From a virus (Duplodnaviria; Heunggongvirae; Uroviricota; Caudoviricetes): DNA of 4,724 nucleotides. Both the position numbers and the translations under genes were made by a program. The notes under the pieces are model-generated. The model did not search any database. It was not told the DNA's origin and saw only the letters and a program-made list of their open reading frames with translations. Location of the stretch: the IMG/VR virus record IMGVR_UViG_2579778797_000005; one strand, 5' to 3'. This document shows positions 919 to 2,141 of this stretch, piece after piece. Numbering within the stretch: the stretch's first letter is position 1; every line of letters begins with the position of its first letter.

Positions 919-1245
919 TCATAACACCGTCGGGCAACGCAAATCGTAAATCAGCACGGACACAGAAAACGGCAGTTCCCCCTGCACGAGGTCTTCCCGC
1001 TCAGCAAGATCCGGATTCCGGTACAACATCCCGGTCAGGCGCATGGCAGCCCCCTTCATCCGGGTTAATGCCTCGCCCGGGATCAGTTCACCGTCCTCAC
1101 GGATCACCCTATCCCGGCTGCCCTGAATGTAGGCCAGCAGCACAGCTGTAGCCTGACGAACCTTGTCCATCAGCATGTCATCATCCGCGTCATGGTCAAC
1201 ACGCAGATGTGCCTTGATTTCTTCCAGTGTCAGTAATGCCGTCAT
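919..1245 (-). CDS. gp6-like phage head-tail connector protein (108 aa)
   Basis: ORF 919..1245 (-). The N-terminus MTALLTLEEIKAHLRVDHDADDDMLMDKVRQATAVLLAYIQ is the classic signature of the gp6-like head-tail connector family (LTLEEaKahLRvD + acidic run + helix). ATG at 1245..1243 overlaps the upstream TGA (ATGA). Shine-Dalgarno GGAGG lies 6 nt upstream (minus strand: cgggatgcaGGAGGcggaaaATG). Confidence 0.85.
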   Translation of the reverse strand: MTALLTLEEIKAHLRVDHDADDDMLMDKVRQATAVLLAYIQGSRDRVIREDGELIPGEALTRMKGAAMRLTGMLYRNPDLAEREDLVQGELPFSVSVLIYDLRCPTVL

Positions 1246-2141
1246 TTTCCGCCTCCTGCATCCCGCCCACGTTTTGCAGCCAGAGTCCAGGCTGATGAAT
1301 GAATGTCTCCGGGCTTATCGCCGGTCATGCTGTTGCAGTGCCACAACGAGCCGCCCCACGTCACTGTATCGCCGGGGTGGTAGATTTCACCGGCTCTGAA
1401 CACACCGCGGTAGAGCATCACCGGCAGGGAAAATGTTTTTTCCGTACGCTGGCCACTGCTCTGCCGGATCACCACAGAGAACGACCGTTCACTAATCATG
1501 CTGACGTCAATATCCGCCACCCCGTCAACCAGGCATTCCCATCCCCGCATCCCGTGCGTTTTTTCATACGCCCGCCAGAGTCCGCCCTGGTGTGTGGCAT
1601 ACGTGCCCCGGGGAAAGGATTTTTGATCGTCAATGGCGGGGAGTATTTCCAGTGCCGTGGCATCACGCCCGTCCTGCGGAACCGGCAGGGCACTCACCGC
1701 ATCATTCACCGCCTGCTGCAGAACATCCGGATCGTAGTCACGACCGTCGCGCGGAACAGGGATATGGCTTACCGCCTCCTTCACCATCTGTTCAAGCATC
1801 GGACGCACATCATCCGGGGTGAGACTTTTACCGTCCGCTGGCTGCGGAATATTTGCGACCGCATCATTCACCGCCTTCTGCATAACATCCGGATCGTAGT
1901 CACGACCATCACGCGGAACAGGAATATGGCTTACAGCCTCCTTCACCATCTGCTCAAGCATCGGACGCACATCATCGCCCGTCACGCACTTCTGTAATAC
2001 CACAGACAGGGAAGCCAGTTTTTCTTCAAACATTTGTGCCTGCGCGGCTATTTTCCCCTCAAATGTGCGCTGTAAATCCGCCAGCACCGCAGCGAATTCT
2101 TCACCCAGCGCACGGATAATGGACAGTTCACGCTCTGTCAT
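1242..2141 (-). CDS. Repeat-containing virion-associated protein (299 aa): helical N-terminus, two tandem 54-aa Pro/Asp-rich repeats, C-terminal CBM5/12 (chitin-binding type 3)-like domain. Candidate head decoration or scaffold-like protein; function unknown
   Basis: ORF 1242..2141 (-), translationally coupled on both sides by ATGA overlaps (portal stop/its start at 2138..2141; its stop/connector start at 1242..1245). Residues 1-50 (MTERELSIIRALGEEFAAVLADLQRTFEGKIAAQAQMFEEKLASLSVVLQ) look helical/coiled-coil. Two near-identical copies of DDVRPMLEQMVKEAVSHIPVPRDGRDYDPDV(M/L)Q(K/Q)AVNDAV follow, with a PxPxDGxD sub-motif occurring four times. The C-terminal segment FRAGEIYHPGDTVTWGGSLWHCNSMTGDKPGDIHSSAWTL follows the ChtBD3/CBM5/12 consensus (AG-x-x-Y-x-x-GD-x-V-x-aromatic-x-G-x-x-aromatic-x-C ... 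P ... W-x-L). Product call is inference. Confidence 0.75.
   Translation of the reverse strand: MTERELSIIRALGEEFAAVLADLQRTFEGKIAAQAQMFEEKLASLSVVLQKCVTGDDVRPMLEQMVKEAVSHIPVPRDGRDYDPDVMQKAVNDAVANIPQPADGKSLTPDDVRPMLEQMVKEAVSHIPVPRDGRDYDPDVLQQAVNDAVSALPVPQDGRDATALEILPAIDDQKSFPRGTYATHQGGLWRAYEKTHGMRGWECLVDGVADIDVSMISERSFSVVIRQSSGQRTEKTFSLPVMLYRGVFRAGEIYHPGDTVTWGGSLWHCNSMTGDKPGDIHSSAWTLAAKRGRDAGGGK
1699..1976 (-). repeat. Intragenic direct tandem repeat: two 116-bp units (1699..1814 and 1861..1976), period 162 bp, about 93% identical (8 mismatches counted by hand)
   Basis: Direct comparison of plus-strand segments gcatcattcaccgcctgctgcagaacatccggatcgtagtcacgacc...catcggacgcacatcatc at 1699 and again at 1861. 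The period of 162 bp equals 54 codons and is in frame with the 299-aa CDS, giving the duplicated DDVRPMLEQMVKEAVSHIPVPRDGRDYDPDV peptide. Confidence 0.9.

Follow-up and report, generated by a model that had tools for sequence, protein, structure and literature searches.

Gene X, a conserved fibre-like gene with a CBM5/12-like C-terminal domain beside the portal gene of long-tailed Shiga-toxin phages and related prophages

Organization of the locus and of gene X

The DNA described here, 4,724 nucleotides from a tailed virus (IMG/VR record IMGVR_UViG_2579778797_000005; the whole stretch that was analysed is called the window), carries part of a phage head module in which an uncharacterised gene for a 299-aa protein, named gene X below, directly follows the portal gene. 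All genes of the window were placed on the minus strand by the ORF listing and by profile matches, and they are transcribed in the order capsid gene (3' part), 73-aa ORF, portal gene, gene X, head-tail adaptor Ad1, head-closure gene Hc1 and gp10-like gene. At the DNA level the window matches long-tailed E. coli phages that convert for Stx1a, Stx2a and Stx2c, with 93-96% identity.

Gene X (1242..2141, minus strand) is a homologue of BP-4795 ORF59, belongs to the PHROG 1289 family, and is considered fibre-like. The ORF listing contained it as claimed in the preliminary description of this DNA, reading from 2141 to 1242 with an ATG start. The translational coupling claimed on both sides was also found, since gene X is separately initiated and shares an ATGA overlap with each neighbour. 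The first overlap joins the portal stop to the gene X start (2138..2141, minus strand; ATG at 2141-2139, TGA at 2140-2138), and the second joins the gene X stop to the Ad1 start (1242..1245, minus strand; stop at 1244-1242, Ad1 ATG at 1245-1243); the latter arrangement also occurs in Klebsiella and Pantoea loci. Gene X resembles neither protease, scaffold nor capsid, as had been noticed, and these functions are united in one upstream gene for a 645-aa fusion protein. It lies where protease and capsid genes would normally be, because the capsid fusion gene precedes the portal gene here.

Three parts could be distinguished in the protein. Residues 1-52 (1986..2141, minus strand) form the N-terminal part, which AlphaFold modelled as a single helix over residues 3-51 with moderate confidence (pLDDT 53-68), in line with the helical N-terminus first described, and which may anchor the protein to the portal tail. 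The acidic shaft (pI 4.4) follows, residues 53-155 (1677..1985, minus strand), with two 54-aa tandem repeats. These are the Pro/Asp repeats seen earlier, now recovered as a direct repeat with 162-nt spacing and 94% identity between the DNA copies at 1858-1976 and 1696-1814; the direct-repeat search reported it, while Tandem Repeats Finder did not. Each 54-aa repeat consists of two 27-aa sub-units of a helix plus "IPxPxDGxD", and the N-terminus and shaft together are helical and acidic (pI 4.4-4.9). Among otherwise near-identical E. coli prophages (L006-L108) the repeat is present in 1-7 copies, giving gene X proteins of 245, 299, 353, 407, 461, 515 and 569 aa; some E. coli loci have a half-unit variant, with 405 aa. 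Sub-threshold Pfam matches to DUF4244 and TetR_C_35 fell within the helical repeats and were dismissed as composition-driven. The full-length AlphaFold model, built from 14 sequences, was poor outside the C-terminal domain (pLDDT 57), and a Foldseek search with it gave marginal E-values only.

The third part is the C-terminal β-domain (CTD; residues 156-299, 1245..1676, minus strand), delimited from the AlphaFold model and family conservation, and its model from a 42-sequence alignment had a mean pLDDT of 90.4. A CBM5/12-like module occupies residues about 241-291 (1269..1421, minus strand), with the Pfam match at residues 249-271 (nt 1329-1397). A chitin-binding-type C-terminus had been proposed from the aromatic pattern, and profile searches upheld this likeness: 31 of 33 diverse relatives match CBM_5_12 (Pfam PF02839) at E<=0.01, the best at 3.8e-9, and precomputed PF02839 matches exist on many relatives of gene X. 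The window protein itself reached 20.0 bits over its full length and 23.1 bits with the CTD alone, against the Pfam gathering score of 26.2 bits. The family profile also found PDB chains with CBM12/CBM5 at E about 8e-4, in the register Y..GD.V.W.G..W.C...P...W, and a PDB sequence search with the full-length gene X profile gave nothing meaningful. The CTD fits a small three-stranded β fold with the conserved aromatic/Gly-Asp signature of CBM5/12. As a prediction for the family, a CBM5/12-type fold at the end of the CTD is solid, and glycan binding is putative.

Residues 172-207 (1521..1628, minus strand) correspond to a first half-module of the CTD, for which profile-profile comparison gave weak support. 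The two halves align in the expected register (hhalign, P=8e-5, probability 61%), which weakly suggests that the first half is a degenerate second CBM5/12-like copy. The nearest viral structural neighbours of the CTD in BFVD are annotated as collagen triple-helix repeat, CBM5/12, ChiC_BD or tail-fibre proteins, and weak matches of the CTD to PHROG tail-fibre families were obtained in addition. Neither Ig-like domains nor other known decoration folds were found in gene X by Pfam and structure comparison. His184, Cys203 and Cys269 are invariant or nearly so across the CTDs of the family, and this conservation suggests a disulfide or metal site.

Upstream of gene X lies an HK97-type portal gene for 454 aa (2138..3502, minus strand; PF04860, E=3.9e-81; TIGR01537, portal_HK97, E=2e-106). 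The portal protein ends in a disordered Ser/Gly-rich tail and then a terminal helix with the final residues ...AMFRGILRK, and the C-terminal motif M-[LFI]-[RK]-G-x-L-x-K, adjoining gene X, is kept across Enterobacterales. Farther upstream is the 3' two-thirds of a protease-scaffold-major capsid fusion gene (3714..4724, minus strand; PF05065; positions 320-626 of the 626 of PHROG 617), which has no stop before the window edge and continues beyond it. The full fusion is a 645-aa CDS in Lys8385Vzw, and in Klebsiella it comprises Peptidase_S78 and Phage_capsid. This fusion gene stands upstream of the portal gene in annotated relatives, and the order is thus inverted versus HK97. Downstream of gene X are Ad1, a gp6-like adaptor (Phage_connect_1) of 108 aa (919..1245, minus strand; PF05135, E=8e-8; PHROG 40), then Hc1 (559..909, minus strand) and the gene for an HK97 gp10-like protein (116..562, minus strand). 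The 73-aa ORF between capsid and portal (3448..3669, minus strand; PHROG 829, unknown function) has a 55-nt overlap with the annotated portal start. Its counterparts of 55-58 aa occupy the same site in all Enterobacterales loci, and none was detected in the Pseudomonas or alphaproteobacterial loci examined.

The gene X family and its genomic position

Homologues of gene X form 1,730 close clusters and about 7,000 distant ones, the latter made at 50% identity and sharing the CTD. From 1.8 billion representative proteins, a profile search collected 7,062 clusters at E<=1e-3, of which 1,084 stayed at E<=1e-30. The best 150 representatives served as the family sample for CTD position and Gly-X-Y counts; 147 of them contain the CTD, which ends a median of 12.5 residues from the C-terminus. 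Judged by homology, the features of gene X are no chance occurrence, the protein being conserved in thousands of sequences. Far from an orphan, it typifies a family that is very large and uncharacterised. Only about 93 of 50,697 isolated-phage records contain it, namely Stx-type E. coli phages and one Salmonella phage, so the family is essentially prophage-borne and has no studied model.

The names given to these proteins are misleading. Gene X matches PHROG 1289 at E=7.5e-157 (distant relatives at 1e-70 to 1e-87) and PHROG 2271 at E=7.6e-245 over positions 616-859. PHROG 1289 represents the stand-alone gene X, PHROG 2271 (859 positions) represents a form fused to the portal with gene X as the C-terminal half, and "portal protein" is the label of both. 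Neither PF04860 nor TIGR01537 matches the 299-aa protein, and the portal domain lies wholly in the upstream 454-aa ORF; the name is inherited from fused alleles. Across sources the protein goes by "phage portal protein", "gp6-like head-tail connector protein", "carbohydrate binding domain protein" or "hypothetical". NCBIfam holds no model for gene X. A precomputed Pfam match, PF28083.1, is present on many close homologues and may be a recent entry for the repeat or N-terminal region of gene X.

Collagen-like Gly-X-Y runs of at least 5 triplets were counted in 45 of the 150 representatives and runs of at least 8 in 19, with a maximum of 21 triplets. In these relatives they replace or supplement the helix-PxPxDG repeats, and the window protein itself has none. 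The helical N-terminus had been called scaffold-like. A scaffold segment is already part of the protease-capsid fusion in this module, and the collagen-like repeats of relatives point to a fibre-like character of the protein instead. Together with the fibre-like structural neighbours and the variable repeat number, they indicate that the product of gene X is probably an elongated trimeric fibre, anchored by its N-terminus and carrying a knob at the far end, trimerisation being deduced from the relatives only.

The position of gene X is highly conserved. About 100 alpha-, beta- and gammaproteobacterial loci share the order protease-capsid fusion, portal, gene X, Ad1, Hc1. The 36 loci found from the CTD, from Enterobacterales, Pseudomonas, Marinobacter, Pseudoduganella, many Rhizobiales and Sphingomonadales, all had (protease-)capsid, portal, gene X, Ad1, Hc1 and gp10-like genes in this order. 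When loci were collected from the portal instead (47-100% identity), gene X was present in 70 of the 73 with enough downstream DNA (about 96%), and the other three were two truncated remnants and one variant fibre. At the gene X site of locus L222 (2836-5220) a 794-aa protein is encoded, which has a long coiled coil and shares the PxPKDG shaft motif, and has no CBM-like end; its β-repeat "IDRDGNL..T..G....LG.VVGRD" also occurs in about 30 of the 150 family representatives.

The portal stop and the gene X start overlap by 1-20 nt in about 100 of 102 related loci from three proteobacterial classes (4 nt in 60 loci, 8 nt in 18, 1 nt in 8 and 14 nt in 7), and the conserved start Met-(N/T)-E-R-E-L overlaps the portal stop. 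This fixed overlap across lineages argues that gene X is a genuine coupled gene and not a fragment. Gene X is almost always accompanied by a portal gene of this subfamily and by the protease-capsid fusion gene. Relative to the window, the CTD is 65-67% identical in Klebsiella and Pantoea (portal 67-68%) and 57-59% identical in Pseudomonas and Pseudoduganella (portal 40-47%, capsid 41-50%); by these alignments it is conserved as much as portal and capsid, or more, across bacterial classes. A host-specific receptor-binding protein was deemed unlikely, since the CTD is conserved like the core head proteins.

Split and fused alleles at the portal junction

A G5 tract lies at the 3' end of the portal gene (2153..2157, minus strand), 12 nt upstream of the portal stop. 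The window reads CAGGGGGAT here, and vB_EcoS-705R7 and phage 2851 read CAGGGGGGAT. The extra base of the G6 form joins portal and gene X in one frame (...AMFRGDTEK-MTERELS...), so that the N-terminal helix of gene X comes directly after the portal C-terminus. The junction of phage 2851 is 1 nt longer than that of the window, and its fused "portal" has 859 aa; "portal" proteins of 778-859 aa are annotated through G6 in phage 2851, YYZ-2008 and vB_EcoS-705R7. Fused alleles occur in phage 2851, YYZ-2008 and WGPS6, and split alleles in BP-4795 (454 + 461 aa), 1717 and Lys8385Vzw.

The E. coli copies in IMG/VR comprised 57 G5 (split) and about 43 G6 (fused) alleles, the latter being roughly 40%, and these counts are not phylogenetically independent. 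Both lengths were found on identical flanking haplotypes, and the tract is a length-polymorphic hotspot. The X frame was intact as often in fused alleles (26 of 32) as in split ones (37 of 42). Independent portal-X fusions were seen in two distant lineages, L212 and P0246. The one in L212 (3402-5252) encodes 616 aa, with a 50% identical portal and a shortened X that has lost the first CBM-like half; it could be real or an assembly error. In phi330 (L149, PV189401), which was Sanger-assembled, the X, gp10-like and major tail genes are each split into two CDSs; these splits are probably sequencing errors, hence the state of its junction is unreliable.

Only E. coli, Pantoea and one other locus have the G tract, and most Enterobacterales have AGAGGAT without a run. 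Ahead of its ATG, the X frame stays open over 36 nt in E. coli and over 60 nt in Pantoea, and in Klebsiella X-frame stops stand immediately upstream of gene X. A programmed -1/+1 frameshift was therefore rejected as a feature of the family, as the slippery sequence is not conserved and other lineages lack the tract.

Proposed role, alternatives and comparison with known systems

The best reading of these data, offered tentatively and at somewhat less than an even chance, is that gene X encodes a fibrous minor head protein of low copy number (about 12 per particle), held by the C-terminal tail of the portal protein and lying on the inner side of the capsid. It is preferred because of the coupling to the portal between 12-copy genes, the recurrent and tolerated fusion, and the near-obligatory presence with high CTD conservation. 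Stop/start coupling with the portal gene would give a portal-like dosage, which argues against the hundreds of copies needed for capsid decoration, and a CTD as conserved as portal and capsid is expected of a domain whose partner is inside the virion and not of one that binds a host receptor. The N-terminal helix would dock where the portal protein ends, on its flexible tail and C-terminal helix, and for this reason a one-base gene fusion could leave both reading frames intact; on this view it would make no functional difference whether the form is free (G5) or fused (G6). Three X chains may form one fibre, as the collagen-type repeats of relatives suggest, giving four fibres per portal dodecamer. 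To our knowledge, portal C-termini form a crown inside the capsid in all solved portals, so the fibres would hang inward, into the procapsid or capsid interior. The conserved knob would bind a conserved viral partner instead of a host-specific glycan, candidates being the inner face of the capsid or the scaffold-protease polypeptide, or DNA, and in this way the portal might be tied to the growing shell or the portal-proximal interior might be organised.

A fuller picture may be drawn, and it is more doubtful: four trimeric fibres with collagen- or repeat-type shafts would hang from the portal crown with their CBM5/12 knobs gripping shell or DNA, throughout the lineage of HK97-like temperate phages of Proteobacteria including the long-tailed Shiga-toxin phages, and the change between G5 and G6 would toggle the attachment between non-covalent and covalent without loss of function.

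Several points weigh against an interior fibre. An anchor helix, a collagen-like or PxPxDG shaft and a CBM5/12 knob are the architecture of an external fibre, and the viral structural neighbours carry the names of collagen-repeat, CBM5/12 or tail-fibre proteins. We know of no capsid-internal protein that is collagen-like or bears a CBM. A shaft of 1-7 repeats between near-identical phages is more typical of exposed spacers. The fused alleles could have lost function and yet be tolerated, with clonal O157 genomes inflating their number, and phage 2851 may need helper prophages to propagate. Finally, no virion proteomics, cryo-EM, genetic or functional study of any family member was found in the literature; the phi330 paper gives mass spectrometry peptide maps for the short-tailed phages only.

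The main rival, possible and a little less probable than the inward fibre, is an outward neck or collar fibre, which keeps the displayed glycan binder of the preliminary description as one of two live options. Here the helix would sit on the exposed portal clip or the Ad1 ring, trimeric fibres would stick out at the head-tail junction like the T4 whiskers, and the knob would adhere reversibly to a widespread GlcNAc-type glycan (chitin, peptidoglycan, mucin or LPS core); G6 would be a tolerated loss of function like the stf frameshift of laboratory lambda. The CBM5/12 homology and fold speak for this, as do the Gly-X-Y runs of 45 of the 150 relatives with their up to 21 triplets, the BFVD neighbours, the weak PHROG tail-fibre matches of the CTD, the hypervariable shaft length, and the location of gene X beside neck genes with coupling to Ad1. 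There is also a precedent, as neck fibres with carbohydrate-binding modules are reported from other phages, e.g. A-1(L) (PMC10966104). However, fusion to the portal C-terminus would trap such a fibre inside, and yet such alleles are common, with X preserved and with named phages among their carriers. Across hosts whose surfaces are unrelated, the CTD shows the conservation of a core structural protein, and gene X is almost never lost, whereas accessory fibres are usually sporadic.

A slippage switch is unlikely. Slippage of ribosome or transcription at AGG-GGG(-G)-AUA would let each allele produce free X as well as X fused to the portal, leading to mixed virions. The identical haplotypes flanking G5 and G6, the place of the tract among the rare E. 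coli codons AGG, GGG and AUA, and the open X frame upstream of the ATG in E. coli and Pantoea would allow it, but the portal frame has no canonical X-XXY-YYZ heptamer, the tract is replaced by AGAGGAT in most Enterobacterales, Klebsiella has X-frame stops, and G5/G6 is short for efficient slippage.

Even less probable is a capsid-wide decoration or head fibre at many shell sites, like Hoc, phi29 gp8.5 or SPP1 gp12. The place of gene X within the head module and its CBM-type distal domain are compatible with it, and SPP1 gp12 gives a collagen-like trimeric precedent (PMC6316719). Against this stand the translational coupling, which links two 12-copy genes and leaves no strong start apart, the fusion that places X at the portal, and the lack of an Ig-like or known decoration fold.

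The idea that the 299-aa ORF is the 3' fragment of a frameshifted portal pseudogene and the fused form is the true gene, which follows the "portal protein (pseudogene)" label of the split form in several GenBank records and the 859-aa model of PHROG 2271, is the least probable of all and largely refuted by synteny in other genera, for the two-gene form with its conserved start is the rule in Klebsiella, Pantoea, Pseudomonas and beta- and alphaproteobacteria, the short portal C-terminus is itself conserved, and the particle-forming BP-4795 and Lys8385Vzw are split.

A head-length ruler was also considered, since elongated heads have been reported for prophages of this kind, and the occurrence of 1-7 repeats among phages with near-identical capsid genes rules against it. 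Head shape is reported inconsistently for this module. The Sakai prophages Sp6, Sp9, Sp10 and Sp12, whose head-gene organisation is unlike lambda, are reported to give long-tailed particles with elongated heads of 44 x 95 nm (PMC2669165), and for phi330, of the same genus as phage 2851, a 55-nm icosahedral head was described.

Whichever way the fibre points, gene X is a near-universal, strongly conserved and uncharacterised part of the head module of long-tailed Stx1, Stx2a and Stx2c phages, and Klebsiella, Salmonella, Enterobacter, Pseudomonas and rhizobia have this head module in prophages that number thousands. The facts at the level of sequence are already implicit in databases, where the gene consistently bears a wrong name ("portal protein", "portal pseudogene" or "gp6-like connector"). 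An internal location would mean a new kind of internal capsid structure and a new way to couple the portal with a shell made from a protease-capsid fusion; an external one would mean a conserved glycan adhesin on toxin-converting phages, bearing on their persistence and spread. The natural split (BP-4795, Lys8385Vzw) and fused (2851) alleles offer a ready-made comparison in Shiga-toxin phages.

Compared with known systems, CBM5/12 modules (PF02839; S. griseus ChiC ChBD, 2d49; Serratia ChiB; Erwinia EGZ, 1aiw; B. circulans ChiA1, 1ed7) sit on secreted hydrolases, whereas the module of gene X is on a phage structural protein and comes after a possible degenerate second copy and a β-hairpin insert. 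With SPP1 gp7 and Mu gpF (MuF) the likeness is positional only, the gene directly following the portal gene as gene X does. SPP1 gp7 is a low-copy, portal-bound and capsid-internal protein, and its position and dosage logic are those proposed for gene X; however, MuF is globular and gene X fibrous, with repeats and a CBM-like knob, and no Pfam match to the MuF domain (PF04233) was found in gene X at E<=0.1. The P22-type portal barrel is a long helical C-terminal extension into the capsid, and the fused 859-aa allele is formally likewise a portal with a C-terminal helical extension. Unlike the barrel, X is a separate polypeptide in most lineages and continues into repeats and a β-domain, and no homology was detected.

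T4 fibritin (wac) whiskers, the neck fibres of cyanophage A-1(L) and lactococcal neck-passage structures are fibrous oligomeric accessories with the N-terminus at the head-tail junction and genes beside neck genes, some of them with carbohydrate-binding distal domains. They differ in being external and never fused to the portal, they have no sequence relation to X, and X is far more strictly conserved. Collagen-repeat tail fibres and SPP1 gp12 share Gly-X-Y with relatives of X (up to 21 triplets), and the structural neighbours of the CTD include "collagen triple helix repeat" proteins; in contrast to the tail fibres, the shaft of the window protein is made of helix and PxPxDG, and the gene is in the head module and not in a tail-fibre module. 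The direct orthologues, with CTDs about 92-94% identical, are ORF59 of BP-4795 and, in phage 2851, the last 400 aa of the "portal protein (GP3)". BP-4795 ORF59 has 5 repeats, phage 2851 has 4 and the window has 2, and otherwise only the split or fused state differs.

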